Notes under the pieces: model-generated
The model's database searches: none
Seen by the model: the letters and a program-made list of their open reading frames with translations, nothing else
Told to the model about the DNA's origin: nothing
Shown here: one piece after another, positions 15,198 through 30,887 of the stretch
Numbering within the stretch: position 1 is the first letter of the stretch
Layout of the letters: the number at the start of each line of letters is the position of its first letter
Made by a program: the position numbers and the translations under genes
Assembly (NCBI RefSeq): GCF_001481685.1
Contig: NZ_CP006867.1
Span: 1,170,001-1,202,000, forward strand
Reading direction: 5' to 3'
Length of the DNA: 32,000 nucleotides
Source of the DNA: Ignicoccus islandicus DSM 13165
GTDB taxonomy: Archaea > Thermoproteota > Thermoprotei_A > Sulfolobales > Ignicoccaceae

Positions 15198-15960
15198 GGC
15201 TTTCAAGGAGAAGATACTTACTAAATTGAATCAGATGAGCCTAGATCTTGCAAGAGAGGGCTCGCGGAACAACGTTCAATTAATTGAAGTCATTAGAGAC
15301 TTGGGTGACCAAGTAGATCCTTCCGTTCCTTGCTCCCTCAGGAGCTGGGAATTTTGGAGGAAGGCATACCTCGAATTACGTAACGCGAATTCGGACGAAA
15401 ACGAAGCTCGAAAGTTAAGAGCGCTCGTCGAGTACCTCAACGAAGTCAACGCGTTCGACATTAAATGGATCTCTGTAGTGAATTTAGTATCCTTAATAAC
15501 TCTAACCACTACGGTTCTCCTCACAGGACCTTCGATACCCAGTTACTTGGGCTTAGTAGCACTATTAATGAGTAAGATCTATCCCCTTGAGACTCTTATA
15601 TTTTCATCCACAATCATACCAACTTCCATATTAATTCATAACATTGAAATGTATCCCCTCGCCTCAATTATCGCTCTCTTAAACGCGTTCTCGATCTTTG
15701 GAGTGTTCGGAGAGAAGCCGAAATATAGGGAAGTGAAGACAACGCAGAAACTCGAAATTAAAGTAAGTGAAGATGAGATCTTAACTATGCTCAAGCAAGT
15801 ATACGGTAAAGAAGCAAAGGACATACTTGACTTCCTAGTGACTCAGCTAATAGTAGAGGGCTACACTAAGGATGAAGCGCTATCTGAGATATGGAGGAGG
15901 TTAACTGGAGAGGAGACCTCAAGAGGACATGAGAGCAGCACAGAGGTCTCTCATGCTTAG
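15181..15960 (+). CDS. Hypothetical membrane protein with soluble N- and C-terminal helical regions
   Basis: 259-aa ORF that overlaps the PP-loop gene by 17 nt. It has a central block of hydrophobic segments. It overlaps the convergent CBS gene by 42 nt. Confidence 0.45.
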   Translation: MTWGCKAFKEKILTKLNQMSLDLAREGSRNNVQLIEVIRDLGDQVDPSVPCSLRSWEFWRKAYLELRNANSDENEARKLRALVEYLNEVNAFDIKWISVVNLVSLITLTTTVLLTGPSIPSYLGLVALLMSKIYPLETLIFSSTIIPTSILIHNIEMYPLASIIALLNAFSIFGVFGEKPKYREVKTTQKLEIKVSEDEILTMLKQVYGKEAKDILDFLVTQLIVEGYTKDEALSEIWRRLTGEETSRGHESSTEVSHA

Positions 15961-18125: not shown

Positions 18126-21100
18126 ATGAGTTCTCAGGAAGCTCGCGAGTTCCCTACTCCAGAAGATAGATGGATCGTAATGAACTCATACTTCAAAGAG
18201 AGAGGACTGACACAGCAACAGTTGCAATCATACAACAAGTTCGTTACAGAAACGTTACAACAGTTAATCGATGAAATAGGTGAGGTCGAGCTACTCGAAG
18301 GCTACAAGCTAGTTTTCGGTAAAGTGAGATACGGTAAACCGATAGTCAAGGAGCCTGATGGCGTCAACGAGGAAGTAACTCCTATGGAATGTAGGATTAG
18401 AGATCTTACGTACTCAGTCCCGATATATTTGCAAGTCAAGTTAATCAAACCCAACTACGAGGAGATTGAAGAGGAAGTTGAAATAGGGCAAATGCCCATA
18501 ATGCTTAGGTCAGTTATAGATCCTCTCTCGAAACTCTCTCCCGAAGAACTGATTGAGAGAGGCGAAGACCCTAGGGATCCCGGGGGCTATTTCATAATTG
18601 ATGGAAGCGAGAAGGTAATAGTAACCCAGGAGGACCTAGCGCTCAACCAAGTATTGGTTGACAAGGGCGGACCTCAAACCACAGTTACTCACACGGCTAA
18701 GGTTCTTTCGAGTACTTTAGGGTATAGGGTGCAAGTAATTGTTGAAAGGTTAAAGGATGGAAACATTTACGTAGTATTCCCTTCAATACCGGGCAGGATT
18801 CCATTCGTTGTTATGATGAGGGCGCTCGGAATTGAATCAGACAAAGACATCGCCGCACTCGTTAGCTTCGATCCCGAGATTCAACAAGAACTCTTAGCTT
18901 CCCTAGAACAAGCAGCTCCATTCGCAACTGTAGAAGACGCTCTCGATCTAATAGGTTCCAGAATAGCTCTAGGTCTCCCCAGGGAAAAGAGAATTGAAAG
19001 AGCGGAGCAAATAATAGATAATAACTTCTTACCCCACCTAGGAAACAAACCTGAAGATAGGCTCAAGAAAGCCATCTTCATTGCTCATATGGCAAGAAAG
19101 TTACTTGAAGTTTACTTGGAAAAGAGGGAACCGGACGACAAGGACCATTACGCTAATAGGAGAATGAAGCTAGCTGGAGACATGCTAGCATCTCTATTCA
19201 GAAGCTACTTGAGACAGATGGTAAAGGACATAGGTTATCAATTAGAGAGATTGGCTAGTAAGGACCCACGCAGCGTTCATTTGAGGATGATAATTAGATC
19301 TAACTATCTAAGCGAGAAGGTGAGGCAAGCTTTAGCTACCGGAAACTGGGTAGGCGGCAGAACGGGCGTTTCTCAATTGCTGGATAGGACTAACTGGCTC
19401 AGCACCCTCTCTCACTTAAGAAGGGTCGTCTCGCCCCTTTCGAGAACTCAACCTCACTACGAGGCAAGAGAACTTCACATGACCCAATGGGGTAGAATAT
19501 GTCCCTTCGAAACTCCCGAAGGTCCTAACATCGGTCTAGTTAAGAACCTAGCATTGTCTGCATACATCTCAGTTGGCGTTCCTGAGGAAGACGTAGAGGA
19601 AGTCCTAAAGGAACTCGGAATGGTACCTATTGACCAAGTGATTGAATTAATTCGAAACGATCAGCCGATACCCGATGAAGTAATCAACGGCGCGAGAGTC
19701 TACTTGAACGGGAGGCCCGTAGGTTACTACCCAGATCCGCATGAGCTTGCATCTAAACTCAGATCTCTTAGACGACAAGGTAAGCTTCACTACGAAGTTA
19801 GCGTCGGAGTATACGAAAACGACGACGGTAGCATAAGGGAGGTTTACGTCAATACGGATAGCGGTAGATTAATGAGACCAGTCTTCGTAGTTGAGAATGG
19901 TCAATTGAAGCTGAAACCTGAGCACATTGAAAAGCTGAAGAAGGGCGAATGGACTTTCACGGACTTGTTGACTAGGGGCATAGTAGAATTACTAGACGCC
20001 GAGGAGGAAGAGAACGCTTACATAGCTTTGGACCCAAAGGATCTCACTCCCGAACATACGCACATGGAGATATGGACTCCAGCCATTCTCGGCGTTGCCG
20101 CCTCTACTATACCTTACCTAGAACACAACCAGAGTCCGAGGAACAGCTATCAGAGCGCCATGGCCAAGCAAGCTCTAGGTCTCTATACTGCTAACTTCAT
20201 GATGAGAACCGATACTAGAGGATACTACTTGCATTATCCAGAGAGGCCGTTAGTACAAACTAAGCACATGGACCTAATAGGCTATAACGATAGACCCGCC
20301 GGTCAAAACGTAGTAGCTGCAATAATGTCGTATACAGGTTACAACATAGAGGACGCAGTTATACTGAACAAATCCAGCGTTGAAAGAGGTCTACTCAGAG
20401 CGACGTTCTTCAGACTTTACCAGACTGAGGAGCAAAAGTACCCTGGTGGTCAAGAGGATAGAATAGAGATTCCAGATCCTACCAAGAAGATAAGAGGTTA
20501 CAGAGGTCCAGACGCGTATAGGAAGTTGGATTCCGATGGAATAGTTCAACCAGAAACATACGTAGTAGGAGGAGAAGTCCTAATAGGAAAAACAAGTCCA
20601 CCTAAGTTCAGCGAAGAGTACAAGGAGCTCGGAGTAGCGGAACTAGGGAGAAGGGACACCTCAGTAGTCGTAAGACATGGCGAAGAGGGTATAGTAGATA
20701 CTGTCGTGATTACCCAGAATATAGATGGTATAAAAATGGTAAAGATAAAGGTAAGAGACTTAAGAATACCGGAGATAGGAGATAAGTTCGCTTCAAGACA
20801 TGGTCAGAAGGGCGTTGCAAGTATATTGATACCGCAATACGACATGCCTTACTCGGAGTTCGGAATAGTTCCCGACATGATACTGAACCCTCACGCGTTC
20901 CCTTCAAGAATGACGTTAGGCCAACTGATCGAGAGCATTGCCGCTAAGGCGGCATCGTTCAGAGGAAGGGAGGTAGACGCCACGCCGTTCTATAAAGAAC
21001 CAATAGACGAGCTTAGGAAGGTGCTAGTGGAGAGAGGTCTCCCACCAGATGGATCCGAGGTTATGTTCGATGGAAGGACGGGCGAAATGGTTCGCAGGCC

Positions 21101-21524
21101 TATATTCATAGGAGTTGTATTCTATCAGAGGCTCTACCACATGGTTGCTGACAAACTTCACGCCAGAGCCAGAGGACCGGTCCAGATACTTACTAGACAA
21201 CCAACTGAGGGTAGAATGCGTAAAGGAGGTCTAAGGTTCGGTGAAATGGAAAGAGACGTTCTAGTTGCACACGGCGTAGCCGAGCTCTTGCTTGAGAGAC
21301 TCTTAAAGAGCAGCGACTTAACTAAGGTATGGGTTTGCGCCAAGTGTGGTCACATAGGCTGGTGGGACGCCTTCAAGGGTAGACCGGTGTGCCCAATACA
21401 CGGTGAGGAAGGGGACATGTATCAAGTTGAAATGAGCTACGCCTTCAAACTGCTATTGCAAGAGATAATGAGCTTAGTTATAATGCCGCGTTTGAGACTA
21501 GGAGATAAGTTCTCGAAGATATAA
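18126..21524 (+). CDS. rpoB: DNA-directed RNA polymerase subunit B (Rpo2), unsplit
   Basis: 1132 aa with conserved blocks GDKFASRHGQKG, GLRFGEMERD and PFYKEP..., a C-terminal zinc ribbon CAKCGH...CPIHG, and YAFKLLLQEIMSL. Confidence 0.97.
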   Translation: MSSQEAREFPTPEDRWIVMNSYFKERGLTQQQLQSYNKFVTETLQQLIDEIGEVELLEGYKLVFGKVRYGKPIVKEPDGVNEEVTPMECRIRDLTYSVPIYLQVKLIKPNYEEIEEEVEIGQMPIMLRSVIDPLSKLSPEELIERGEDPRDPGGYFIIDGSEKVIVTQEDLALNQVLVDKGGPQTTVTHTAKVLSSTLGYRVQVIVERLKDGNIYVVFPSIPGRIPFVVMMRALGIESDKDIAALVSFDPEIQQELLASLEQAAPFATVEDALDLIGSRIALGLPREKRIERAEQIIDNNFLPHLGNKPEDRLKKAIFIAHMARKLLEVYLEKREPDDKDHYANRRMKLAGDMLASLFRSYLRQMVKDIGYQLERLASKDPRSVHLRMIIRSNYLSEKVRQALATGNWVGGRTGVSQLLDRTNWLSTLSHLRRVVSPLSRTQPHYEARELHMTQWGRICPFETPEGPNIGLVKNLALSAYISVGVPEEDVEEVLKELGMVPIDQVIELIRNDQPIPDEVINGARVYLNGRPVGYYPDPHELASKLRSLRRQGKLHYEVSVGVYENDDGSIREVYVNTDSGRLMRPVFVVENGQLKLKPEHIEKLKKGEWTFTDLLTRGIVELLDAEEEENAYIALDPKDLTPEHTHMEIWTPAILGVAASTIPYLEHNQSPRNSYQSAMAKQALGLYTANFMMRTDTRGYYLHYPERPLVQTKHMDLIGYNDRPAGQNVVAAIMSYTGYNIEDAVILNKSSVERGLLRATFFRLYQTEEQKYPGGQEDRIEIPDPTKKIRGYRGPDAYRKLDSDGIVQPETYVVGGEVLIGKTSPPKFSEEYKELGVAELGRRDTSVVVRHGEEGIVDTVVITQNIDGIKMVKIKVRDLRIPEIGDKFASRHGQKGVASILIPQYDMPYSEFGIVPDMILNPHAFPSRMTLGQLIESIAAKAASFRGREVDATPFYKEPIDELRKVLVERGLPPDGSEVMFDGRTGEMVRRPIFIGVVFYQRLYHMVADKLHARARGPVQILTRQPTEGRMRKGGLRFGEMERDVLVAHGVAELLLERLLKSSDLTKVWVCAKCGHIGWWDAFKGRPVCPIHGEEGDMYQVEMSYAFKLLLQEIMSLVIMPRLRLGDKFSKI

Positions 21525-21533: not shown

Positions 21534-22097
21534 ATGAAGAGAGTCTTAATTGTAGGTGCAGGCGCACTGGGGAGCTGGACGGCCGAAATACTCTCCAGAA
21601 AGGGTCCATTTTCTTTCTATATTGTTGATCCCGATAGAGTGGAGGAAAGTAATCTAGATAGGCAACTCTTCTACCCGCAAGACGTGGGAAAATACAAGGC
21701 TGAAGTTCTAGCACAAAGAATTACCCTTATGGGAAACGACGCGCAAGCAATAATTTCAAGGATAGAGGATGTTGAAGGAATAAGCGCTGACATAGCATTG
21801 GCCTTAACTGATAACATCCCTAGTAGGATATTCGTAGAAGAAAGGTATTTTCCTACTATACACGGTATGGTGAGACCCGAAGTAGGCATGGTCTTGATGA
21901 CTACAAACGAAGTAAAGCTCTCCAATCTAATGACGGAAGGTAAACACACGGGCGCTCAAGACGTTTCCATGGTTGTATCGGTAGCCTCATTGGTCGCGAG
22001 GCTAGCTCTAGATTACTTAATTAGAGGCGATACGTCCAACGCGGGGAAGTTATTTCTCTTATCTAGATATTCACTCGAAGTCTTGGATCTTGAGTGA
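21534..22097 (+). CDS. Minimal ThiF/MoeB-family (E1-like) adenylation domain protein
   Basis: 187 aa with VLIVGAGALGSWTAEIL (GxGxxG), VDPDRVEESNLDRQ (the DxDxVxxSNLxRQ motif), GKYKAEV and ALTDNIPSR. It has no CxxC zinc pairs and no C-terminal domain. Confidence 0.8.
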   Translation: MKRVLIVGAGALGSWTAEILSRKGPFSFYIVDPDRVEESNLDRQLFYPQDVGKYKAEVLAQRITLMGNDAQAIISRIEDVEGISADIALALTDNIPSRIFVEERYFPTIHGMVRPEVGMVLMTTNEVKLSNLMTEGKHTGAQDVSMVVSVASLVARLALDYLIRGDTSNAGKLFLLSRYSLEVLDLE

Positions 22098-22110: not shown

Positions 22111-22120
22111 CTTATATAAA
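22111..22120 (+). promoter_or_regulatory. TATA box candidate for the multi-wHTH gene
   Basis: cttatataaa at 22111-22120 overlaps the first ATG of the track ORF (22120). It lies about 30 nt upstream of the second ATG at 22150, which favours 22150 as the true start (leaderless or short leader). Confidence 0.45.
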
Positions 22121-22149
22121 TGCTTTATTTTTCAGCATGGAGATTAGAA

Positions 22150-23937
22150 ATGCTACTAAAAAGAGAATATTTGGAAATGTTAGAGGAAGTGGGAGACAAG
22201 GAACTAGATATTAACGAGTTCGTAAAGGGCGAATACGAAGAAAGGGAAAGGTTAATAAAGAATCTGTTGGCCTTAGAGCTCCAAGACTTGATTCGCCCGA
22301 AGGATGCGAGGAATCCAAGGATTTTCGTCCTAACCGAACACGGTAAGAAAGTTCTAGATATATGGAAAAGGTTAGGGAAGCCTCAAGTTGAGAGGTGGTT
22401 GGACTCTAGGATACACATGATGCTATGGACTTTATGGAAGACTAAAAGCGAGGCACCTAAGGACTGGAAGACGCCGCTATTAGAGAGGAACTTCGTCAAC
22501 GAGGAAGGCAAGTTAAGGGATGAAGCAATAGAGTTGCTAAAGGTGTTTGAACCAGGAATTAGAGCAAGGAAAATCAGGATTACGAGGGACTTGGGCGGAG
22601 TCTTAGCGAGAATAGCACCCGGTCCGGCTACCACTGCAGCTCTTAAGAACCATCCCGAAGACGCCTTAGACTTACTAGAAGCAATGGATGTAATAGTTTA
22701 CAGTGCCCCCGATGGGGGATACTACGCGCTAACTAGGTTAGGAAGGTATTTACGAATGGCTATTAGGGAACTTCGTCCTGTTGCCATGGAGTACATTCTA
22801 GTTAATATGAAAATTATAGAGCTAGTCAAGAAGTTGATCGAAGGAAAGGAGCTTACTGATCAAGAGAAATTCGTCCTAATGAACCTAGGATACATGACCG
22901 TTTCAGAACCAACCAAGGCTGCCAAGTTGCTCTATAAGGCGATAGAGGAATTAGAGAGAGGAAAGTATTGGGAGACCTTCACCATAGGTCTAACTAGAGT
23001 GGATCAATGGGTCATGAAGATGATCGATTACCTTTGGAAGAAAGCGGAAACCAATCCGGAGCTCAAGCCGACCAAGTCATTGATAGTAGATTGGTTCGAG
23101 AGGCACTGGAAAGACATAGGAATGGACGAAGAAACTCGCAAGGAGCTGTTGTTCTCGGACTACACAGTTGGTATATCTCTCTATAGGTTAGAAGCATTGG
23201 AATTAGTCGATAGCTATGAAGAGAAATCGAAGCTCATATACCAATTAACAGACTACGGGAAACAGCTCTTAGAGGTCATCGAAAAAGGGAAGATCGTCGA
23301 AATACCTACTTACGCAATAAGACCTTTAGTGTACGCTGACAGAGGTTTGCCGCCGTTTAGATCATGGATAGAGGAGGCCGCAAAGGAAGGCCTGCTTGGT
23401 CCAGGGGGCATGGGGAGAAAGGGCAGGAAGTTGGCACACTTAGCCAGAGTAGTGAAAAGAAGGCCGCTGCTTACTAGGATGGAATTACTTGTACTCCAAA
23501 AGATGTTACCAAGCGGTCAAGTACAGAAAATAGAAGAGCTAGTGAAGAAGTTCGAAAACCCGGACGAAGCCAGGGCAGCTCTATACTGGCTGGAAATGTG
23601 GGGTGCCGTTAACTTCTACGATAACGATTACGTAGAAATAACTGAAATTGGAGAGAACTTGAAGAAGGCGTTGGTAGCCACGCCTCCCGGAATAGCTACG
23701 CCCGTACACCCACACTTCTTGAGGGTCCTAGAAGTGATAAAGGAGCTCGGAAGTTACGAAGACATTGCTGAGATAGTAAATAGGACTAGGCTTACGTTAG
23801 GTATAGTGAAAGACGCCATAGTAGTGGCTAGGGAAGCGAAGCTACTAGGTAAGAAGGATCTAACTGGCGAAGGCGAACTTCTACTAGAGACGGTAAAGGA
23901 GATACAAGCCCACAGAGAGACTATGGCAGAGGAGTAA
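22150..23937 (+). CDS. Large soluble protein built from repeated winged-helix-like modules, function unknown
   Basis: At least five segments follow the pattern hydrophobic helix, then L-x-x-L/M-G/D-hydrophobic, short beta hairpin, then (L/I)T-x-x-G-x-x-L. Examples are LLALELQDLIRPKDARNPRIFVLTEHGKKVL, LLEAMDVIVYSAPDGGYYALTRLGRYL, LYRLEALELVDSYEEKSKLIYQLTDYGKQLL, LYWLEMWGAVNFYDNDYVEITEIGENL and AREAKLLGKKDLTGEGELLL. No catalytic motifs were seen. Confidence 0.55.
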   Translation: MLLKREYLEMLEEVGDKELDINEFVKGEYEERERLIKNLLALELQDLIRPKDARNPRIFVLTEHGKKVLDIWKRLGKPQVERWLDSRIHMMLWTLWKTKSEAPKDWKTPLLERNFVNEEGKLRDEAIELLKVFEPGIRARKIRITRDLGGVLARIAPGPATTAALKNHPEDALDLLEAMDVIVYSAPDGGYYALTRLGRYLRMAIRELRPVAMEYILVNMKIIELVKKLIEGKELTDQEKFVLMNLGYMTVSEPTKAAKLLYKAIEELERGKYWETFTIGLTRVDQWVMKMIDYLWKKAETNPELKPTKSLIVDWFERHWKDIGMDEETRKELLFSDYTVGISLYRLEALELVDSYEEKSKLIYQLTDYGKQLLEVIEKGKIVEIPTYAIRPLVYADRGLPPFRSWIEEAAKEGLLGPGGMGRKGRKLAHLARVVKRRPLLTRMELLVLQKMLPSGQVQKIEELVKKFENPDEARAALYWLEMWGAVNFYDNDYVEITEIGENLKKALVATPPGIATPVHPHFLRVLEVIKELGSYEDIAEIVNRTRLTLGIVKDAIVVAREAKLLGKKDLTGEGELLLETVKEIQAHRETMAEE

Positions 23938-23997
23938 GGTGAGTCTATAGTAACATTTATAACATATACTACTTTTCCCGAAAGTGAGGTAATTGGG

Positions 23998-25293
23998 ATG
24001 AAGAGGACCGTATTAGCGTTAACTCTACTATCCTTAATAGCGTTCTCCACTATTGCATTAGCGGCAACCCAAGAGAAGTACGGTGGTCCTTCTTGTTCAT
24101 ATATAAAGGAAGCTATCTCCAGGGCCGGTGGCGTTGAAGCAGTAAAGAACGGCTTAGGAACTACTGTTATAAAGATCGGAGCTCTAATACCTATGAGCGG
24201 TGCGCTCGCTTCCTTCGCTAATGAGAAGTATGCAGTGCAACTAGCAGTAAGGGACCTAAACGCGTGCTTCAAGGAACTCAATTTACCCTTCAAGGTAGAA
24301 GCGTACATCGAGGACACTCAAACCACTCCCCAAGTGGCCCTAGAGAAGGCCAGGAAGCTCGTTAACATCAATGGCGTCCACATGATAGTAGGCCCCGCAA
24401 CCAGTGCAGCTGTTGGAACTTTACAAGACATAATAAACAGCGAACTCAAGGTAATACTAATGAGCCACTCGAGCACCTCCCCCTTAGTGAGGTTAAACAA
24501 TGAAGAAGCCATAAAGAAGAACGGTTACAGTTACGTATTCTTTAGCATTAGCAGCGACTTCTTCCAAGCCAAGGCTTTAGCTAGCGTAGTCAAGAGTTTC
24601 GGTTACACTAACGTCGTCTTCTTCTATAGGAACGACGACTACGGTAAGGGCTTCGCCTTAGCCTTCAAGGAGGCCTTTAGCGAATTAGGCGGAACCGCTC
24701 ACTTAGTACCCTACGACCCCAATGCCAGGAGCTACCTAGCTGAGCTAAGGAGCGTATTCAATTACAAGCCACAAGCTATAGTTTGGCTAGCGTTCGATGA
24801 GATAAAGGTCATATTAAGGCAAGCGTTAACTCTAGGTCTACAGAAGTATCCTTGGTTCTTCACTGAAGCCGTTAAGGGTCCAGCACTGATATCCGATCCT
24901 GTTGTCGCTAAGGTTCTAGCTCTAAAGAACGTTCTGGGAACCGCTCCTTACACTAGCGGTAACTTCATTGAGTACTATAAGAGCGTCTACGGTAACGATC
25001 CGGTTGAGTTCAGCGATACTCTCTACGATGCAGTATGGTTAGTAACCCTAGGTGCCTTAAGAGCCGCTAGCTTCAACCCCAACCTAATGGAACACGCTAT
25101 AATAGAGATGAGCTACATTTACAAGGGCTTCAGCGGAGACAAGTCAATGAATGCAATATATCAAGAGCCCTTGACCACCAGCTACAGCGTATGGACCGTA
25201 AAGCTGGTTGACGGTAAGCCCGTCTTCGAGGACGTAGGCTTCTGGTCGCCTTCGGAAGGTCTCAAGTTAACCGTCAAGTTAACTCCCAAGTAA
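23998..25293 (+). CDS. Branched-chain amino acid (LivJ/LivK-type, type I periplasmic) ABC substrate-binding protein, orphan
   Basis: Has the signal peptide MKRTVLALTLLSLIAFSTIALAA, then IKIGALIPMSGALASFANEKYAVQLAVRDLN and MIVGPATSAAVG, typical of the Leu/Ile/Val-binding family. An SD-like GTGAGGT lies upstream of the ATG. Confidence 0.75.
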   Translation: MKRTVLALTLLSLIAFSTIALAATQEKYGGPSCSYIKEAISRAGGVEAVKNGLGTTVIKIGALIPMSGALASFANEKYAVQLAVRDLNACFKELNLPFKVEAYIEDTQTTPQVALEKARKLVNINGVHMIVGPATSAAVGTLQDIINSELKVILMSHSSTSPLVRLNNEEAIKKNGYSYVFFSISSDFFQAKALASVVKSFGYTNVVFFYRNDDYGKGFALAFKEAFSELGGTAHLVPYDPNARSYLAELRSVFNYKPQAIVWLAFDEIKVILRQALTLGLQKYPWFFTEAVKGPALISDPVVAKVLALKNVLGTAPYTSGNFIEYYKSVYGNDPVEFSDTLYDAVWLVTLGALRAASFNPNLMEHAIIEMSYIYKGFSGDKSMNAIYQEPLTTSYSVWTVKLVDGKPVFEDVGFWSPSEGLKLTVKLTPK

Positions 25294-25295
25294 CT

Positions 25296-26084
25296 TCAGT
25301 AAGTTTTTTCAATTAAGTATTTCAAGAATTCTCTTGATGACTCTAATTTTTTGACTTCGTCTGAGCACAATGGACATCCTTCGTTTGTGACGTCGTTAGC
25401 TGAAATCATTGAATAAGGTGCGTTAACGTTAACGTGAATTTCGCTGGGCCATTCCTTACCATTTAGCAAGAATAGAACTGCTTGGACGCTAATTGCCGCC
25501 ACTACTTCAGCCAAATTAGGATCTGTGTAGTACCTTACCTTTTCATCCCATATTCTCTCACATATCGGACAATAACCTTCCTTCAGTACCTTAACATACC
25601 CCCTATAGCTTCCGATGCCTACGTTCACGAACTTCTTGTTATGCTTTACTGCTAGAGCAAGCAAAACGGCCCTGGGCGCGAGTACGTCGAACGAGGTTAC
25701 CACTATATCTACCTTTTTAACTAGCTCGTTAACATATCCAAAGGACTTATCGCTCCAAAGCCCTGAAGGAGTTGGTACTTCAAGTTCAATACCTATTAGC
25801 TTTGTCCAAGGGTGGAACTGTTGAAGCCTAGACGTAAGGGTCGTTGCTTTGTTAAGGCCAACTTCATCCGTATGGAAACATTGATAACCTACGTTCTCAA
25901 CGCCTACCTCATCGAAGTCTATAACGTATATTTCCTCAAAGTTAAACCTGGCCAAGTTCCGAACTATCCTGGAACCTAAAGTTCCCGCACCACCAACGAG
26001 AACTCTCTTCCCTTCAACGCTTAATCCAGATTCCTTTAAGTAATGTTGAGTCCTTTCGTAGAATCCTCTCGGCCGAGCGTCCAC
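25296..26084 (-). CDS. Minimal E1-like ThiF/MoeB-family adenylyltransferase with a tetracysteine zinc site
   Basis: 262 aa with FYERTQHYL...KRVLVGGAGTLGSRIV (GxGxxG), VIDFDEVGVENVGYQ (a degenerate DxDxVxxSNLxRQ), GLNKA, and TSFDVLAPR (the Mg/ATP Asp...Arg). There are two CxxC pairs, CPIC (res 172-175) and CPLC (res 237-240). It starts at a GTG at 26084 and overlaps the JAB gene by 49 nt. Confidence 0.8.
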   Translation of the reverse strand: MDARPRGFYERTQHYLKESGLSVEGKRVLVGGAGTLGSRIVRNLARFNFEEIYVIDFDEVGVENVGYQCFHTDEVGLNKATTLTSRLQQFHPWTKLIGIELEVPTPSGLWSDKSFGYVNELVKKVDIVVTSFDVLAPRAVLLALAVKHNKKFVNVGIGSYRGYVKVLKEGYCPICERIWDEKVRYYTDPNLAEVVAAISVQAVLFLLNGKEWPSEIHVNVNAPYSMISANDVTNEGCPLCSDEVKKLESSREFLKYLIEKTY

Positions 26085-26869
26085 GTCGTGCCCCTAATTA
26101 CTGCCTTTTCTATATCTAAATTGAAAACTTTCACATCGTATAGGACATTCAAGTGCGGTGAAAGTTTCAAATACTGAAACTCGCTCTCTCCCACATTAAC
26201 GTAATAGGACGCGATGAATATGAAATCCTCTAAAACTATTTCTCCCGTCGTTCCTATCCTAAAAGGAATGCATTTTTTCGAAGGTAGCGTACACTCGCTT
26301 CCGTCTATATCTACGGTGCTTCCGTCGCGATATACCTTAGCGAAGCCCTTCTTCCTAGTACCGATACCAACCACTTTGTTTACGTGCACCTTAAACTTAT
26401 CGTATCCTATCGTCATTTGGGGCACTGGTTCATATATAGCCAAATCTAAGCACAAGGAATTACCGGCATGAGTTGGAGAGACTATTCCAAATACCCTAGG
26501 TCTCCCTGGAACAGTAGCCAGAATTTGAGTTTTCAACGCTAAGGTCATTGTAGCTATGTCTATTGCCGATGGCGATGGGGCTATCCCGCAGTGATAATGA
26601 ACAGTTACTAAGTCTTCCGGCTTGGCGTCCGTGGTTCTTACGCTTACGGGCGTTTTTTCAATTGCTCTCATGGGTCTAGCGTTGGTCACATATATTTCCT
26701 TATCGTTCATAAATCCCATGAAGCTCACTACGTCCTCCGATGCGTCCTTGGATAAGTTGAAGCAATTGTTTTCATTAGCCTTCTTCAGTAGCAATTCGAA
26801 TACCGATGGTACGATCTTTAATCTATGGAGCGTTACCGTCGCAGAGTCCAACGTCCGTGCATAGCGCAT
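26036..26869 (-). CDS. JAB/MPN+ (JAMM) metalloisopeptidase-like protein with an uncharacterised C-terminal domain of about 165 aa
   Basis: Residues 91-104, HYHCGIAPSPSAID, are a perfect H-x-H-x7-S-x2-D JAMM motif (nt 26558-26599). The upstream acidic residue is in SEDVVSFMGF (E45). ATG start at 26869. The C-terminal half is beta-rich with no motif I recognise. Confidence 0.75.
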   Translation of the reverse strand: MRYARTLDSATVTLHRLKIVPSVFELLLKKANENNCFNLSKDASEDVVSFMGFMNDKEIYVTNARPMRAIEKTPVSVRTTDAKPEDLVTVHYHCGIAPSPSAIDIATMTLALKTQILATVPGRPRVFGIVSPTHAGNSLCLDLAIYEPVPQMTIGYDKFKVHVNKVVGIGTRKKGFAKVYRDGSTVDIDGSECTLPSKKCIPFRIGTTGEIVLEDFIFIASYYVNVGESEFQYLKLSPHLNVLYDVKVFNLDIEKAVIRGTTWTLGREDSTKGLNIT

Positions 26870-27578
26870 CCGTCATTACCTCCAGGGGATTTTCTTGTTG
26901 ACTAATATAATCCCAAGACTCCACGTGCATTATGCATGCGTTAACGTTTAACATTTGAGCTATGCGTTCCAGAGAGGTAGAGAGCAACGGTATTTCCTTG
27001 GCTTTCGTTAAGAAATAGTCGCTAGTTAGATTATAGAAGCAGCATTTGTGCCATATCTTCGGAGTTACGTAAATCAATGGTTCGGTCTTTGGATAACCTA
27101 TGCTGGGTAAAACGAAAACTGTGTACGTCGAGTTTTGTGCACAATAGTCCTTCTTCTTACATTTTCTATATGCGTAAATTCCCTTGCCGGGATCTTTTCC
27201 ATCTATGGGAACAAATTGCTTAGTTAGTTTACTGGACGAGAAATAATGAGATCTGAACGTCTCAACTGCGTCCTCTAAGGGATCGTAATCTCGAAAAAAA
27301 GATCCATAAGGTTCTTCAATTGAAGCGTACCAAACGTTTCCGTATTTTTCTATAAGGGATCCCACGCTCTCGGATCTATATGTGACATCTATCTCGGAGC
27401 CGTCAACTCTCTTAACGTAAAGTTTTATTCTCTGAGGGGCGATTCCCAGCCTCTTAGCTAACTTGTCCCTAACCGAGCTAGGTAGTTCTCCGTAATCTAC
27501 CTTCAAGTTGTGTTCCGAGAGCTCGGGCTTTATCAATATCGAGAGTATTAGCTCACCGCTCTTATTATTAGTTGACAT
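26823..27578 (-). CDS. Putative fusion of an N-terminal ubiquitin-like (beta-grasp) domain and a UBC/E2-like core
   Basis: Residues about 8-88 (ELILSILIKP..HNLKVDY..SSVRDKLAKRLGIAPQRIKLYV...SVGSLIEKYGNVWYASIE) follow the ubiquitin secondary-structure and sequence rhythm; compare the ubiquitin GIPPDQQRLIF. Residues about 100-230 have an E2-like layout: helix, beta meander, then TYTVFVLPSIGYPKTEPLIYVTPKIWHKCCF. This resembles F-x-hydrophobic-x-F-P-x-x-YP-x-x-PP-x-hydrophobic-x-F-x-T-x-I-x-HPN...C. The Cys spacing is non-canonical. Operon context with JAB and E1 supports the call. Confidence 0.5.
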   Translation of the reverse strand: MSTNNKSGELILSILIKPELSEHNLKVDYGELPSSVRDKLAKRLGIAPQRIKLYVKRVDGSEIDVTYRSESVGSLIEKYGNVWYASIEEPYGSFFRDYDPLEDAVETFRSHYFSSSKLTKQFVPIDGKDPGKGIYAYRKCKKKDYCAQNSTYTVFVLPSIGYPKTEPLIYVTPKIWHKCCFYNLTSDYFLTKAKEIPLLSTSLERIAQMLNVNACIMHVESWDYISQQENPLEVMTDALCTDVGLCDGNAP

Positions 27579-27597
27579 TTTTACATACCCTTAAAAA

Positions 27598-28041
27598 TTA
27601 TGGACCTCTCCTCATTTCCGCTTCCGCTTCAATCGTGCTTATACTAGATTTCAGTTCGTCAACTAATTGCAATATCCTCTTAAGCTCTTCTTCAGGCAGT
27701 TTAACTTTCTCTAGGAACTCTTCTCCGTCTGCAGTTAACCTAAGCTTGTTCCTTCCAGGTACTTTTTCTATTAGGTTTAGATACAGCATGTCCATTACGT
27801 CTTGGTGTAGTTCGTTGCTGCCAATGACTTTTCCTATTTTTACAAACTGATAACCTATGTCGAGTCCCTTTTCCTTCATTTCGTACACTAGTTGAGTAAG
27901 GCCCTTCTCTGAAACGTTGCCTAAGTGCTTTATGATATGTAGTAATATCAACGCCTTCTTGTTCTTCTTAACGTCGTCTAGGGTGACTACTTGCCTAGAT
28001 ATTATCTTTAATTCCTTGCTCTTGCCCGTTGGCGAGGACAC
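27598..28041 (-). CDS. Small protein, winged-helix-like N-terminal part plus a C-terminal coiled-coil; first gene of the E2/JAB/E1 operon
   Basis: 147-aa ORF with a GTG start at 28041. Its stop is 19 nt upstream of the Ubl-E2-like ATG. The segments ALILLHIIKHLGNVSEKGLTQLVYEM...IGYQFVKIGKVIGSNELHQDVMDMLYLNLIE resemble wHTH / phage-associated antitoxin-like folds. The C-terminus EELKRILQLVDELKSSISTIEAEAE is helical. Confidence 0.4.
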   Translation of the reverse strand: MSSPTGKSKELKIISRQVVTLDDVKKNKKALILLHIIKHLGNVSEKGLTQLVYEMKEKGLDIGYQFVKIGKVIGSNELHQDVMDMLYLNLIEKVPGRNKLRLTADGEEFLEKVKLPEEELKRILQLVDELKSSISTIEAEAEMRRGP

Positions 28042-28060
28042 GATCTCAGCCCCTTTACCT

Positions 28061-28090
28061 TTCGTAATAAGCTCAATTAAGGTTTATTTG
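28061..28090. promoter_or_regulatory. Back-to-back TATA-like boxes of a divergent promoter
   Basis: The 71-nt gap between the divergent starts at 28041 (-) and 28113 (+) contains tttattt (28083-28089), about 27 nt upstream of the ATG at 28113. It also contains taataag (28065-28071; minus strand CTTATTA), about 27 nt upstream of the GTG at 28041. Confidence 0.35.
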
Positions 28091-28112
28091 TAAGCGCAGC
28101 GGGGACTAGAAA

Positions 28113-28775: not shown

Positions 28776-29369
28776 CTATCGCCCCCTCTTCAAAATGCTA
28801 CCCCTAACCATTACTCTGGCAACGTTTAGCAATATCCCTATTGCGATAGCAACTAGTAGAGGTAAGCTGACCTTTATCATAAATCCGTTAGGTAAGACCT
28901 CTGAAGCGTATTCCAAAAACGCAGCGAAGAGGTAAGGTATGGAATACCCTACAATGCCAGCGTAATTGAAAGGCATCGCAACGAATGCAACGGGTAAGAC
29001 AACGCTTGGAACCTCCTCTCCCGTTACTTTAACTTGAACCGGATAGCTCCCTAATAGGGGACTCACTACTACGCCCTTGAGCAAGGCTAGAATTGCTATT
29101 GGCAAGAGTATTGAGGCTCTTCGATAATCTAGTGATAGTAAGGCTAAGAAGAGACCGTAAGGAAGGATAGGGCTTCCGGAAAAGTAGTAGCAAGTAGTTG
29201 AGAAGATAAGTGAGCATATGGTCATGACGTCCAAGTTCAATGGAAACTTGGACGCGATAGCATAGATAACAGACGCTACTAGCATTGAGGCTGAGGCCTC
29301 TAACGGATCCAGCCAAAGGTATGCGAGGATCACTGCTAATATAAGCGGTACCTTGGAGGCTCCAACCAT
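28776..29369 (-). CDS. Polytopic membrane protein, function unknown
   Basis: 197 aa, almost entirely hydrophobic segments. It overlaps the upstream DUF58 gene by 34 nt. Confidence 0.5.
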   Translation of the reverse strand: MVGASKVPLILAVILAYLWLDPLEASASMLVASVIYAIASKFPLNLDVMTICSLIFSTTCYYFSGSPILPYGLFLALLSLDYRRASILLPIAILALLKGVVVSPLLGSYPVQVKVTGEEVPSVVLPVAFVAMPFNYAGIVGYSIPYLFAAFLEYASEVLPNGFMIKVSLPLLVAIAIGILLNVARVMVRGSILKRGR

Positions 29370-30325
29370 GGTATGACCCTCACTGAACCCATGGAACTTA
29401 ATCGAGACATGAAATTTCTAAGCTCTATCTCAACTTTCCGCTCAATGATCTCAATAGCCGGAAACAAGTCCCTTACGTTCGGTATACACGCTAGAGGGTT
29501 CAAGAGGAAGTAGTTCGCTGCCCTTTTAATGGATGCGTTAGGCCCGATTACCAGTAAATCTGCGTTCTCCTTCACTTCCTTCATTCCGGTATCCCTAAGA
29601 AATTCCGCTACCGATTCAGCGAAGCTACGGAAACACTCGTTAATTTTCCAAGGACCTAGCTCTACGGAGAACGTTTTCAGATTGGGGTTTTTAACCACTT
29701 CCTCTCTAACCCTCTTTAATTCCTTTACCTTTACTGTGCCCATAGGGTTCAACGTTTTCCATATAACTAGCCTTGGTTCATCGCCAGGCCTGTACTCTCT
29801 GGCGCCCTCTATTTCGGGTATTGCTTGGTATCCGCCTTCAACCTCAATCACCTTAGCTAAACCGAGCTCCTCTATTTTCCAAACTGCATAGAATTCGTTA
29901 AGAGGGAGGTATCCAGAGCACTCGCATTTTCCCCTCTCTACCTTCACCAATATGCCGTTCCAATAGACGAACGGTTGAGTCTTCAGGTCTATTTGATATT
30001 CTAGAATACCACTAGAAGACTTGAGGGAGCCCTTCAATGGTTGGACCGAGGATACTTCAACTATTTCCGATTGCTTGGGTCCGATTACCTTAACAAGTAG
30101 AGTGTCTCCAAAGCGTTCGACGCTCCTCCTAACTTTTATTTTCTTCTTTTTATTACAGTTCACTGCTTGGATACTCGCAGCCGTGAGGATGGAGGACGCT
30201 GCGAGGACTGGTCCTAACCACGGGAAGAAAAGTATTGCAGATGCTAGACCTATCGATGAATATAGAGCTACCTTCCTTCCATCTTCGTTTAAAGAGCACT
30301 GCGCTGGTATTAGATATTCCCTCAC
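29336..30325 (-). CDS. DUF58-family protein (vWA-like, usually MoxR-associated) with an N-terminal membrane hairpin
   Basis: Contains GAREYRPGDEPRLVIWKTLNPMGTVKVKELKR, which matches the DUF58 signature (REYxxGDxxRxIxWKxxARxGxLxVKE), and an N-terminal hydrophobic pair VALYSSIGLASAILFFPWLGPVLAASSILTAA. Confidence 0.7.
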   Translation of the reverse strand: MREYLIPAQCSLNEDGRKVALYSSIGLASAILFFPWLGPVLAASSILTAASIQAVNCNKKKKIKVRRSVERFGDTLLVKVIGPKQSEIVEVSSVQPLKGSLKSSSGILEYQIDLKTQPFVYWNGILVKVERGKCECSGYLPLNEFYAVWKIEELGLAKVIEVEGGYQAIPEIEGAREYRPGDEPRLVIWKTLNPMGTVKVKELKRVREEVVKNPNLKTFSVELGPWKINECFRSFAESVAEFLRDTGMKEVKENADLLVIGPNASIKRAANYFLLNPLACIPNVRDLFPAIEIIERKVEIELRNFMSRLSSMGSVRVIPWLEPPRYRLY

Positions 30326-30329
30326 TCTC

Positions 30330-30887
30330 TTACTTCACCCCGAACTTACCTATCACATACCCTAGGGCCAGTGAGTGATTAGTAAGGAACTCTGTTAAGT
30401 TGTTCGTCTCCAATTCACACGTATCCAATGCTATTACTAAGAAGTAATATCTGTGAACTTCTCCTTTAGGAGGGCACACGGGAAACCAACCTTTTTTCAA
30501 TGCACTATTATAATAAACTTTAACAACGTTCCCATGCGCATCTACTAATTCGAATAGATGAAAGAACGTTCCGCCTCTAGTATCTGGGTCGAAAACTATT
30601 ACAGCGTAACACGGGGCATCGTCATACCTACTCCATGAAATCTTAGGAACGCTTGCGTTACCGTAACACGTAAACTCCTTCTTTATAAATCCATTGGAGA
30701 TCGCGTCCGTCTTAACTTCTATTAGCGGAAGTCTTGTCTTCTTTATAAAGGCCCTTATATTTTCGTCGCTTATCTCTATGTACTTTGTTTTAATCGATAA
30801 CGAATATAGTTGATAGAACGCAAAGAGCGCTATACCAGCTACAACAACTATTAAAGCAATTGACTTCCTTTCAACTCTCAAGTTCAT
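30330..30887 (-). CDS. PEBP/YbhB-family (Raf-kinase-inhibitor-like) protein with an N-terminal membrane anchor or signal
   Basis: Contains VIVFDPDTRGGTFFHLFEL and PPKGEVHRYYFLVIALD (the PEBP DPD...H and HRY motifs), and an N-terminal hydrophobic segment IALIVVVAGIALFAFYQLY. Confidence 0.75.
   Translation of the reverse strand: MNLRVERKSIALIVVVAGIALFAFYQLYSLSIKTKYIEISDENIRAFIKKTRLPLIEVKTDAISNGFIKKEFTCYGNASVPKISWSRYDDAPCYAVIVFDPDTRGGTFFHLFELVDAHGNVVKVYYNSALKKGWFPVCPPKGEVHRYYFLVIALDTCELETNNLTEFLTNHSLALGYVIGKFGVK

Follow-up and report, generated by a model that had tools for sequence, protein, structure and literature searches.

A fused Ubl-E2-like protein, a tandem-MPN JAMM protein and a minimal E1 in Ignicoccus islandicus: a probable archaeal ubiquitin-like conjugation cassette

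Type I Bub (6E.1/DUF6527; BubAB, BubCD and BubE) is known from bacterial operons (Ye, Gong, Chambers and Corbett 2024, PMC11601596), in which the JAB domain of a JAB-E1 fusion cuts a fusion of a ubiquitin-like protein (Ubl) and an E2, BubAB, after a conserved Gly. Its E1 has no crossover Cys, its E2 is active though non-canonical, and many of the operons carry wHTH-type regulators (PMC11601596). The Bil system (BilABCD) encodes Ubl, E2, JAB and E1 in this order and pre-processes the Ubl to a bare Gly by means of the JAB (PMC10557695, PMC11601596). Type II CBASS (Cap2/Cap3) combines an Atg7-like minimal E1, a non-canonical E2 and a JAB protease, with Cap2 being an E2-E1 fusion and a CD-NTase rather than a Ubl being conjugated. 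The N-terminal domains (NTDs) of Atg7 and STIL consist of two tandem MPN-like subdomains, and that of Atg7, the non-canonical autophagy E1, binds the E2s Atg3 and Atg10 (PMC5928214). In archaea, the SAMP/UbaA/HvJAMM1 and Urm1 systems and the eukaryote-like E1/E2/RING/Rpn11 operons of Caldiarchaeum and Asgard archaea rely on Ubl modifiers, with a ThiF-type E1 for activation and a JAMM protease for trimming; in Caldiarchaeum, an Rpn11 homologue processes the ubiquitin. In crenarchaea, Urm1 and SAMP are described as E2-independent, and dual-function Ubls are established in Urm1, SAMP2 and TtuB (PMC2948915).

The cassette described here occupies positions 25296-28041 of the window, a 32,000-nucleotide stretch of DNA from the crenarchaeon Ignicoccus islandicus DSM 13165, and comprises four minus-strand genes (EYM_06870 to about EYM_06855) spaced, from gene 1 to gene 4, by a 19-nt gap and then by overlaps of 47 and 49 nt. 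An earlier note on this DNA had given the same ORF coordinates, strand and spacing, all exact on re-checking the sequence, and every motif it named was found (GYPKTEPLIYVTPKIWHKCC, HYHCGIAPSPSAID, GGAGTLG, CPIC and CPLC). Since homologues of each of the four proteins were found at 40-83% identity, and since the co-linear order with identical overlaps recurs at six other loci—in I. hospitalis (Igni_0135-0138, ordered as in I. islandicus), I. pacificus and four related MAGs—the four ORFs are, as judged from sequence comparison, genuine genes and not chance ORFs. Co-location of the four, proposed earlier as a check, holds in every relative found, and the identification of the cassette as a Ubl/E2-like/JAMM/E1 operon stands. 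The sole room for a cassette promoter would be the divergent 71-nt intergenic region upstream of gene 1 (28042..28112), in which AT-rich TATA-like boxes (TTAATTGA and CTTATTAC) can be read. With a probability of roughly 0.6, the cassette is a self-contained module for ubiquitin-like activation and conjugation, specific to its lineage; an E3, targets and expression data were looked for and none were found.

Gene 2 (EYM_06865; 26823..27578, minus strand) encodes the 251-aa Ubl-E2-like precursor, which UniRef names 'Ubiquitin-like domain-containing protein' and for which the AF2 model has a mean pLDDT of 85.6. In the model, residues 9-87 follow the order beta-beta-alpha-beta-beta-alpha-beta, and Foldseek matched the N-terminal domain (aa 1-92; 27303..27578, minus strand) to UFM1 (target TM 0.77), SUMO, NEDD8, ubiquitin and Caldiarchaeum Ub at E of about 1e-4, with no ThiS or MoaD among the 50 matches listed. 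The predicted structure confidently identifies a beta-grasp Ubl, bearing out the earlier proposal of a Ubl fused to an E2-like domain. Directly at the junction lies I87-E-E-P-Y-G92-S93 (27300..27320, minus strand), a predicted JAMM processing site: IEEPYGS is invariant in 11 sequences, indels start just past S93 in a variable, flexible linker, pLDDT falls below 50 at residues 92-95, and the motif persists in distant relatives as FEQPYGS and SFGT. The cassette's own JAMM protein would cleave after Gly92, in EEPYG/S.

This JAMM protein, the 277-aa product of gene 3 (EYM_06860; 26036..26869, minus strand), begins 25 codons upstream of the start annotated by NCBI, which is placed too late because the N-terminus MxYARTLDSATV is kept in homologues. 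Its AF2 model (pLDDT 88.1, pTM 0.85) matched the NTDs of STIL (E 3e-9) and Atg7 (E 5e-7 to 1e-5, TM about 0.5) over the full length in Foldseek. The first subdomain (MPN+; aa 1-150; 26420..26869, minus strand) aligns over about 155 columns with BRCC36, Rpn11, CSN5 and AMSH, and carries the JAMM motif H91-x-H93-x7-S101-x2-D104 (HYHCGIAPSPSAID; 26558-26599, minus strand). Across 18 sequences H91, H93, S101 and D104 do not vary, and E45 (26726-26740, minus strand) is near-invariant, so that the intact JAMM site noted earlier is upheld, on a fold matching Rpn11, BRCC36 and CSN5. The second subdomain (aa 151-265; 26075..26419, minus strand), which the earlier note did not mention, is MPN-like and non-catalytic, beta-rich with one capping helix in the AF2 model, and shares collinear motifs with the proteins of the distant locus L005 and of Asgard archaea; without it the protein would not match the Atg7 and STIL NTDs over its full length. 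An active MPN+ with an inactive MPN-like partner is also found in the eukaryotic JAMM deubiquitinase pairs Rpn11-Rpn8, CSN5-CSN6 and BRCC36-Abraxas, but the cassette holds both in tandem in one 277-aa chain, arranged as in the Atg7/STIL NTDs.

The remainder of the gene 2 product (aa 96-251; 26826..27293, minus strand) may be an E2-like domain of the UBC superfamily, an assignment that draws on its motifs, its topology and weak matches to profiles. In the AF2 model, alpha1 is followed by strands 134-140, 151-157 and 168-172 with UBC-like spacing, YPxxxP lying between the latter two strands and H177-K-C179 after the last. Local matches to a verified UBC alignment were obtained by hhalign (E 0.0098 and 0.0025), and the Asgard homologue gave a sub-threshold match to Pfam UQ_con (E 0.05-0.12). 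Nothing above threshold was returned for the domain from Pfam, NCBIfam or PDB sequences, and no E2 structure was among the 50 matches listed by either of two Foldseek searches; the E2/UBC-like core claimed earlier is hence retained on its motifs, topology and profiles, with the listed Foldseek matches weighing against it. Within H177-K178-C179-C180 (27039..27050, minus strand), C179 is the candidate catalytic or thioester Cys, since cross-clade alignment finds it, with C140, to be the only Cys invariant over all three very divergent clades. The hhalign register, however, aligns C179 at the asparagine of the UBC HPN motif and not at the canonical catalytic Cys position, which is D187 in I. islandicus and His in the Asgard homologue, and C179 could alternatively form a structural zinc site with C140, H177 and H218.

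Such a metal-site pattern, the non-Cys residue at the canonical position and the outcome of the Foldseek searches would all suit a modifier of the SAMP/Urm1/TtuB kind that needs only an E1, in which the C-terminal domain is a non-catalytic, zinc-stabilised UBC/UEV/RWD-like chaperone, cis-inhibitor or adaptor, and the Ubl, adenylated after the JAMM cut, is attached without an E2 thioester. An E1 without a catalytic Cys is possible for MoeB-type adenylating enzymes, and the E2 independence of crenarchaeal Urm1 and SAMP offers a precedent. This reading is nonetheless rather doubtful, as C179 is invariant amid variable surroundings, the tandem-MPN partner is similar to the domain on which Atg7 docks its E2s, and Bub, of the same fusion architecture, has an active E2. 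SAMP and Urm1 systems differ from the cassette in lacking an E2 and in using ThiS/MoaD-like Ubls, and the Caldiarchaeum type in having separate, Pfam-recognisable genes for ubiquitin, UBC E2 and RING E3.

Gene 4 (25296..26084, minus strand) encodes a 262-aa E1 whose ThiF type, recognised earlier, is borne out by Pfam ThiF (E 4.7e-25). Its features, all on the minus strand, include the GxGxxG (GGAGTLG; 25974-25994), E63-N-V-G-Y67-Q (25881-25898), D133 (25686-25694), the zinc CxxC pairs (CPIC, 25560-25571; CPLC, 25365-25376) and the Cys-less crossover R184-Y185-Y-T-D-P189 (25518-25535); nucleotide-binding, Asp and zinc residues are invariant in the family. The 'Asp/Arg block' claimed earlier is only partly canonical: it has D133 and R138, but an invariant Tyr, Y67, stands in for the Arg of NxxRQ. 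No family member has a Cys in the crossover loop, where position 184, aligned with Atg7 C507, is R, A or T; the earlier note recorded the absence of neither residue. Y67 and Y185 are invariant even in the distant L005 E1, while Asgard relatives retain both the NxxRQ Arg and the crossover Cys. When the E1 family profile was compared with solved structures, the Atg7 adenylation domain matched best (2.8e-19 and 6.5e-25), whereas ThiF/MoeB models outscored the Atg7 model when library HMMs were run on the E1, all under cut-offs, and the Asgard fusion alone as query placed Uba1 and MoeB ahead of Atg7; the apparent affinity to Atg7 depends on search direction.

Loss of two residues kept in Asgard relatives, the JAMM gene split by a frameshift in the deposited I. 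pacificus genome, and JAMM and E2-like domains that Pfam fails to recognise in the I. islandicus proteins might suggest a decaying relic with inactive enzymes. This is highly improbable: no other catalytic or metal-binding residue varies among sequences that are only 40-60% identical, the Tyr replacements are themselves invariant, and gene order and overlaps are maintained, which together indicate that purifying selection acts on a modified mechanism.

[quoted passage not shown] Gly92 would then be adenylated by the minimal ThiF-type E1, which probably forms a homodimer and binds zinc at a tetracysteine site; the competence of the E1 is assumed because the catalytic Cys and the NxxRQ Arg are both missing. 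As the E1 has no crossover-loop Cys, the activated Ubl would be handed to Cys179 of the E2-like domain straight from the adenylate or, less likely, by a Tyr185 oxyester route as in Bub. The tandem-MPN protein may act like the Atg7 NTD in docking the E1 and recruiting the E2, which would pass the Ubl to targets, and the JAMM site may reverse the modification. As its biological function, housekeeping or regulation is likelier than defence.

The closest characterised architecture is Type I Bub and not Bil. Both Bub and the cassette place the Ubl N-terminal to a diverged E2 with a conserved junction Gly cut, or predicted to be cut, by the operon's own JAB/JAMM, couple the JAB to a minimal homodimer-type E1, and have a Cys-less E1 crossover segment with an invariant Tyr. 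JAB and E1 are fused in Bub and the Asgard relatives but overlapping genes in I. islandicus; Bub has an E2 Ser-His pair and a DUF6527 serine protease, whereas the cassette has an invariant Cys (H-x-C) and no such protease. The cassette further differs by its extra MPN-like subdomain and winged-helix gene, by proteins that none of the Pfam Prok-E2/Prok-JAB HMMs match, and by an archaeal host, vertical inheritance and a housekeeping neighbourhood. The earlier reading of a Bil-like system rested on shared components and order and needs correcting, because Bil E1s are IAD-AAD-CYS proteins with a catalytic Cys domain and Bil Ubls are separate (PMC11601596), whereas here the E1 is a lone 262-aa adenylation domain; Bil E1 and E2 are also described as canonical-like, and Bil is an antiphage defence of patchy distribution.

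The closest folds and sequences are those of Atg7, which shares GAGTLG and a T-x-P segment past the catalytic-Cys position with the E1. Atg7 is one chain, about 630 aa in yeast, and the corresponding I. islandicus polypeptide is split in two; its NTD is non-catalytic, whereas the NTD-like part of the cassette keeps a JAMM site; its C507 and NPVRQ Arg are replaced, the latter by Tyr; and the cassette Ubl, fused to the E2, is not specifically Atg8- or Atg12-like. The MPN and E1 parts are united in the Asgard relatives (Wukong-/Hodarchaeota), overlooked earlier, where a Ubl-E2 fusion of the same kind adjoins a 601-aa Prok-JAB-middle-ThiF fusion (JAMM-middle-E1), its equivalent of the MPN+ region passing Pfam Prok-JAB. 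Gene context lends the proposed module independent support both at these Asgard loci and at L005, where genes for a JAMM+CTD protein, a ThiF E1 and a bona fide Prok-JAB come after that for a distant Ubl-E2 homologue.

All three cultured species of Ignicoccus, and related MAGs, carry the cassette at a syntenic position, with housekeeping genes (rpoB, eIF2-gamma, hemB and that for a solute-binding protein) as neighbours, which indicates vertical inheritance in place of the patchy spread typical of defence islands. A defence role, suggested earlier, is unsupported on these grounds. Antiviral defence of the Bil/Bub/CBASS type, with the same chemistry directed at viral targets and the winged-helix protein as an infection-responsive regulator, would accord with the parallel to Bil and especially Type I Bub in gene content and order, with the wHTH-type regulators of Bub operons, with the HerA/DUF87 ATPase, zinc-ribbon and small HTH proteins adjoining L005, with a PIN toxin-antitoxin pair following the cassette at locus L001, and with the match of PADLOC Cap2 'E1-E2' models to the E1 Rossmann region. 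It is unlikely, since, besides the syntenic position, the neighbours of the Asgard loci are STT3, OST3, RadB-like and UPF0147 genes, PADLOC models match neither the Ubl-E2 nor the JAMM protein, and no DUF6527/BubE, CD-NTase or effector gene was among the genes scanned.

Two possible accessory genes, for a PAPS-reductase-like PP-loop ATPase (13911-15197, plus strand; PAPS_reduct/QueC-like in Pfam and NCBIfam, and weakly similar to TtuA and DndC) and a 259-aa membrane protein (15181-15960, plus strand; tblastn match to Igni_0134 at 15322-15930, E 3e-10), are the immediate upstream neighbours of the cassette, which they overlap, in I. hospitalis, I. pacificus and two MAGs (L003, L007, L008 and L010). 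A rearrangement in I. islandicus has parted the pair from the cassette, now about 10 kb away. The linkage could point to a sulfur carrier: adenylation of the Ubl would be followed by its thiocarboxylation, and the PP-loop enzyme would receive the sulfur for thiolating tRNA or a cofactor, with the Cys-rich C-terminal domain as a persulfide relay and not an E2. The Cys-less, MoeB/ThiF-sized E1, the seven Cys of the 251-aa protein that are invariant inside the Ignicoccus clade and the dual-function Ubls (PMC2948915) are compatible with this. Sulfur transfer is improbable, however: the linkage, broken in I. islandicus, does not exist at L001, L005 or the Asgard loci; the matches of the Ubl include UFM1, SUMO and ubiquitin, with no ThiS or MoaD entry among the 50 listed; a rhodanese domain was found in none of the four cassette proteins; and a JAMM protease and UBC-like motif would be superfluous.

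Gene 1 (EYM_06870; 27598..28041, minus strand) encodes a 147-aa protein that, from its sequence, is probably a winged helix with a helical tail at the C-terminus and may be a regulator, an adaptor or a substrate transcribed together with the rest of the cassette. The Asgard relatives lack it, Pfam, NCBIfam and PDB sequences gave no match, and PADLOC WH_III-A gave a weak winged-helix match (E 0.005); the wHTH call of the earlier note is plausible. It is the most conserved component of the cassette, with 58-73% identity across six loci, in all of which it lies directly upstream of the Ubl-E2 gene.

[quoted passage not shown] A four-gene cassette of Ignicoccus islandicus DSM 13165 is here classified among the prokaryotic Ubl/E1/E2/JAB operons, as a compact system that is inherited vertically in a hyperthermophilic genus with cultured members (I. 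hospitalis, I. islandicus, I. pacificus). It appears to unite features that are separate elsewhere: a Bub-like Ubl-E2 precursor, a two-subdomain JAMM protease of the type of the Atg7 N-terminal domain (NTD), and an E1 without a catalytic cysteine. Read as open reading frames, the minus-strand genes encode a winged-helix-like protein of 147 aa (EYM_06870, 27598-28041), a Ubl-E2-like protein of 251 aa (EYM_06865, 26823-27578), a JAMM/tandem-MPN protein of 277 aa (EYM_06860, 26036-26869) and an E1 of 262 aa (25296-26084), separated in that order by a gap of 19 nt and overlaps of 47 and 49 nt, exactly as the earlier note had described them. Homologues of all four share 40-83% identity, and the same order and overlaps occur in I. 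hospitalis (Igni_0135-0138), I. pacificus and four Desulfurococcales/Thermoproteota MAGs, which answers favourably the check on co-location proposed in that note. The protein families are very small: a set of 5.8 billion proteins contains 11, 18 and 16 clusters of them, and a profile search run exhaustively over 1.84 billion representatives found only eight proteins of the 251-aa family. No paper describing the cassette genes was found in the literature searched; Igni_0134-0138 are not mentioned in the literature text or the supplementary material of the I. hospitalis proteome paper that were searched, and the genome paper of I. hospitalis is silent on ubiquitin, ThiF, MoeB and JAB.

The NCBI model of EYM_06860 has 252 aa and starts 25 codons too late, leaving out the N-terminus MxYARTLDSATV; since homologues conserve this stretch, the 277-aa reading and the 47-nt overlap are correct. 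The model of Igni_0137 in I. hospitalis is likewise short (259 aa against 272). Within the overlap of the Ubl-E2 and JAMM genes (26823-26869, minus strand), both frames are conserved at the amino-acid level, as ALCTDVGLCD and MxYARTLDSATV respectively, so that constraint from one frame may account for part of the apparent conservation of the peptide in the other. In three loci checked by hand, the frame offset from gene 2 to gene 3 is constant, as is that from gene 3 to gene 4, and translational coupling between the overlapping genes is likely. In I. pacificus (CP006868.1, locus L007, 6217-7013), the JAMM/tandem-MPN gene is frameshifted into ORFs of 128 and 140 aa just past the JAMM motif, with GRPACSE and a stop in place of GRPRVFGI and the other three genes intact; the gene is a genuine pseudogene unless the frameshift is a sequencing error. 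Antisense ORFs of 55-190 aa lying over real genes, for example 23754-24317 on the minus strand and, within the cassette, 26214-26471 and 27572-27850, are of low complexity, without support and almost certainly spurious.

The 251-aa protein is recognised by no curated library searched. Its weak Pfam match to DUF6831 (E 0.002-0.007) was taken as chance, being found in one of ten family members and having no literature. The AlphaFold2 (AF2) model (pLDDT 85.6) consists of a beta-grasp domain at residues 9-87, a low-confidence linker at 92-95 and a C-terminal alpha/beta domain. In Foldseek searches the N-terminal domain matched UFM1, SUMO, NEDD8, ubiquitin and Caldiarchaeum ubiquitin, with no ThiS/MoaD entry among the 50 matches listed for the model, and the beta-grasp-like N-terminus that had been proposed is thereby upheld. 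In the family alignment, I-E-E-P-Y-G-S (residues 87-93) is invariant and the sole variable, indel-bearing stretch starts right after it; distant homologues retain FEQPYGS and SFGT at this position. Sequence, model and analogy together suggest that the Ubl tail ends at the internal Gly92 and would be released there by cleavage, as BubCD cleaves BubAB and frees the Ubl (PMC11601596).

The C-terminal domain probably has a UBC fold, whose hallmarks are helix alpha1, a four-stranded sheet, the YPxxxP turn and subsequent helices. In the AF2 model a long helix is followed by strands at 134-140, 151-157 and 168-172, with a Y162-P-x-x-x-P167 turn between the last two strands and H177-K-C179-C180 after them. 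When compared by hhalign with a small UBC alignment, whose sequences were verified against the PDB, residues 150-181 align without gaps on UbcH5B 48-79 as a local match (E 0.0098), and for the non-Ignicoccus homologues the match spans beta2 to just before the canonical cysteine (E 0.0025). The UQ_con and Prok-E2_A to Prok-E2_E HMMs do not match the 251-aa protein at E values up to 1, UQ_con being sub-threshold for its Asgard homologue (E 0.05-0.12), and no E2 structure is among the 50 matches listed in either Foldseek search (PDB, BFVD). The Ubl domain dominates both searches, which leaves the UBC fold unconfirmed. The E2/UBC-like core proposed earlier is supported by motifs, element order, strand spacing and local hhalign matches, and not by the HMMs or the listed structures. 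In the hhalign register H177 takes the place of the His of the HPN motif and C179 that of its Asn; the canonical E2 cysteine (UbcH5B C85) falls on D187, and on His in the Asgard homologue, so that the aligned position, about 8-10 residues after HPN, holds no canonical catalytic Cys in the I. islandicus protein. No cysteines but C179 and C140 are invariant across all clades, C215, 7 residues ahead of W222, being limited to the Ignicoccus clade. Conceivably, C140 and C179 form a structural metal site together with H177 and H218.

The 277-aa protein carries the JAMM motif H91-x-H93-x7-S101-x2-D104, invariant in 18 sequences along with a near-invariant E45. The motif had been called perfect, and rightly so; to judge from its sequence, the protease site is live, with its JAMM residues intact. 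Pfam (JAB, Prok-JAB), NCBIfam and PADLOC gave no match to this protein, and the Prok-JAB search suggested in the earlier note thus came out negative; the equivalent N-terminus of an Asgard fusion protein passes Prok-JAB at 28.6-30.6 bits (cut-off 25). Searches of PDB sequences and profiles with the JAMM protein, the E2-like domain and the winged-helix-like 147-aa protein gave noise only (for the three together TRIP12, thioredoxin-like proteins and oestrogen receptor). The first ~155 columns of the AF2 model (pLDDT 88, pTM 0.85) match BRCC36, Rpn11, CSN5 and AMSH in Foldseek (E 2e-5 to 4e-4), and the whole chain, over ~290-305 columns with a TM score of ~0.5, matches the N-terminal domains of STIL (E 3e-9) and of Atg7, the non-canonical E1 of autophagy (E 5e-7 to 1e-5). 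Both of these domains consist of two tandem MPN-like subdomains, and it is through its NTD that Atg7 binds the E2s Atg3 and Atg10 (PMC5928214). Taken together, the JAMM motif, the full-chain matches and the published STIL structure indicate that the 277-aa protein consists of an MPN+ domain with an MPN-like domain behind it, in a layout resembling that of the Atg7 NTD.

The 262-aa protein is a ThiF/MoeB-type E1, as had been stated: Pfam ThiF (PF00899) matches above its cut-off (E 4.7e-25), GxGxxG and two CxxC pairs are kept, and G32, G34, G37, D56, K79, D133 and R138 are invariant among 12 sequences. The catalytic Asp/Arg block claimed for it holds in part, D133 and R138 being invariant and the Arg of the ATP-phosphate motif N-x-x-R-Q being replaced by Tyr (E63-N-V-G-Y67-Q68). 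All members of the Ignicoccus clade, and the metagenomic locus L005, have this Tyr; at the same place Asgard relatives have ENTFRQ and Atg7 has SNPVRQ. No E1 of the Ignicoccus/L005 clade has a crossover-loop cysteine between C175, in the first CxxC, and P189. Against PDB sequences, the E1 family profile found the adenylation domain of yeast Atg7 as its best match (2.8e-19, 72.6 bits, profile positions 14-226), followed by UBA3 (8e-14), MoeB (2e-10), UBA5 (3e-10) and Cap2 (3e-9); BubCD is not among the matches listed at the thresholds applied. A three-clade profile again puts Atg7 first (6.5e-25, 91 bits), ahead of Uba1 (83 bits) and MoeB (71 bits). GAGTLG is common to the cassette E1 and Atg7, and the catalytic C507 of Atg7 (C-T-V-T-R-P) aligns with R184 (R184-Y-Y-T-D-P). 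Specific orthology with Atg7 is not claimed, because library HMMs rank ThiF/MoeB over Atg7 for the I. islandicus E1, all far under their cut-offs (the Atg7 model TIGR01381 scores 37.7 bits against a cut-off of 571), and because the Asgard fusion searched alone places Uba1 and MoeB ahead of Atg7. Alignment of the crossover by MAFFT differs, placing Tyr185 on a Phe of the Asgard E1s and the Cys in an 11-residue insertion. Tyr185, which lies beside the Atg7/Asgard Cys in one alignment and not in that of MAFFT, was accordingly downgraded as a candidate Bub-like oxyester residue.

Outside the Ignicoccus clade, the exhaustive profile search found two distant homologues of the Ubl-E2 protein, P0034 and P0031. 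P0034 lies on L005 (metagenome SRR12235901) and is followed by a 259-aa JAMM protein with a C-terminal domain, a 275-aa ThiF E1 and a separate Prok-JAB gene; the E1 has 30% identity to that of I. islandicus, shares its GYQ motif and likewise has no Cys in the crossover. Farther downstream come genes for zinc-ribbon proteins, one of them Cys-rich, and for a HerA/DUF87 ATPase; the region (L005 1033-8838) also encodes an AbrB/SpoVT-like protein and HTH-tailed proteins. This context resembles a mobile element or defence island, in contrast to those in Ignicoccus and the Asgard archaea. At NCBI the P0031 cluster carries two Asgard names, Candidatus Wukongarchaeota and Candidatus Hodarchaeota, and in two loci (L016, L018) its gene is followed by one for a 601-aa protein comprising Prok-JAB at 25-107, which exceeds the Pfam cut-off, a central stretch of ~200 aa and ThiF at 307-558 (E 3e-41). 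At its C-terminus the fusion aligns with the cassette E1 family at 99.4% probability, and its residues 90-277 align collinearly but weakly with the JAMM/MPN2 family; its E1 keeps ENTFRQ and the crossover Cys, with ASKC-TVAS against QMC-TVTR of Atg7. The Asgard genes are neighboured by STT3, OST3/OST6, a RadB-like gene and UPF0147. Comparison with the Asgard and L005 loci makes the split, Cys-less and Arg-less Ignicoccus form look derived, seemingly a branch of a wider archaeal family of which the Asgard branch has the domain architecture of Atg7. Atg7 combines an NTD of two MPN-like subdomains with ThiF in one chain, whereas the cassette carries these on separate adjacent genes, and the Atg7-like single chain is known only in the Asgard relatives.

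A review reports that no homologues of the Atg7 catalytic domain were found in Archaea or Bacteria (PMC11354881). We give a chance of roughly one in five to the reading that the Ignicoccus cassette and its Wukong- and Hodarchaeota relatives represent a prokaryotic antecedent of the Atg7-type non-canonical E1. Under this proposal, a catalytically active JAMM protease whose MPN domain had duplicated would first have been coupled in an operon to a minimal E1 and then fused to it, the JAMM/MPN part of the fusion would have docked a dedicated E2, and in eukaryotes that part would have lost its protease site and become the Atg7 NTD. Through the Asgard protease-E1 fusion a concrete hypothesis becomes testable, by which the E2-docking domain of Atg7 would have arisen from a JAB protease whose gene lay next to that of its E1. 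If true, autophagy-type Ubl conjugation would have an archaeal root, and Ignicoccus, an archaeon with an endomembrane system, would run a Cys-less variant of the pathway with unusual chemistry, either direct transfer from adenylate to E2 or a Tyr oxyester.

Among characterised systems, Type I Bub (6E.1), as defined in PMC11601596, shares with the cassette a Ubl-E2 fusion with a conserved junction Gly, a Cys-less E1 and JAB-mediated release of the Ubl, the last being predicted in the cassette. Bub has a true JAB-E1 fusion without a second MPN subdomain, whereas the cassette has two genes overlapping by 49 nt; the Bub E2 has an invariant Ser-His pair, no Cys and oxyester chemistry, in contrast to H177-x-C179 with its invariant Cys; and the Bub operon includes a DUF6527 serine protease (BubE) that the cassette lacks, PF20137 (DUF6527) matching none of the four cassette proteins or 11 window neighbours scanned. 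The order of Bil genes given in the earlier note is correct, but its Bil-like reading is not sustained, as the Bil E1 is multidomain (IAD-AAD-CYS) and the Bil Ubl stands alone (PMC11601596), whereas here the E1 is a single adenylation domain and the Ubl is fused to an E2-like domain. Type II CBASS has a CD-NTase and the E2-E1 fusion Cap2, which has been described as Atg7-like (PMC10557695); neither occurs in the cassette, no CD-NTase or effector is found among the genes scanned, and PADLOC Cap2 models match only the Rossmann part of the cassette E1.

The favoured role is that of a housekeeping or regulatory modifier rather than a defence system. The defence function suggested earlier finds little to recommend it: inheritance is vertical, housekeeping genes surround the cassette in the window (rpoB, eIF2-gamma, hemB and those for a solute-binding and a tRNA-binding protein), and defence models matched nothing of the cassette except the Rossmann region of E1. 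In I. hospitalis, I. pacificus and two MAGs, two genes sit just before the cassette and overlap it, one for a PAPS-reductase-like PP-loop ATPase and one for a membrane protein, and a sulfur-carrier pathway is retained as a minor rival because of this PP-loop neighbour and the Cys-less E1. The homologous pair in I. islandicus (13911-15960) lies ~10 kb away on the plus strand, opposite to the cassette. Relative to I. hospitalis, the cassette and its adjoining solute-binding-protein gene have been inverted and moved ~10 kb from the pair, with eIF2-gamma, rpoB, a short ThiF gene and DUF505 now in between. The pair is absent from L001, another of the loci compared, from L005 and from the Asgard loci, which makes the four-gene unit the conserved core.

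The short ThiF gene (21534-22097, plus strand; 187 aa, Pfam ThiF E 1e-22) sits between rpoB (18126-21524) and the gene for a 605-aa DUF505 protein (22120-23937). Its product has 40% identity to residues 26-87 of the cassette E1, and in NCBIfam it comes closest to the E1 part of the anti-phage 6A-MBL cap2_3 model, at a score far under the cut-off. Several other loci from the genome scan with the E1 profile proved unrelated to the cassette: L011 and L012 are ordinary MoeB-like genes adjoining CysRS, L014 and L015 are Tepidisphaerales ThiF genes, and L013 (Candidatus Heimdallarchaeota, CP070695.1, 4753-8461) is a different operon with JAB and a small ThiF. The L013 operon, another uncharacterised archaeal JAB-E1 system, encodes a 435-aa CxxC-repeat protein, a 279-aa JAB, a 227-aa minimal ThiF (ENLGTQ) and a radical-SAM-like protein, with an AAA ATPase further on. 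Finally, three co-oriented minus-strand genes at 28776-30887 in the window encode a 197-aa multi-pass membrane protein and a 329-aa protein, both without a family match, and a 185-aa PEBP-family protein with an N-terminal hydrophobic segment.
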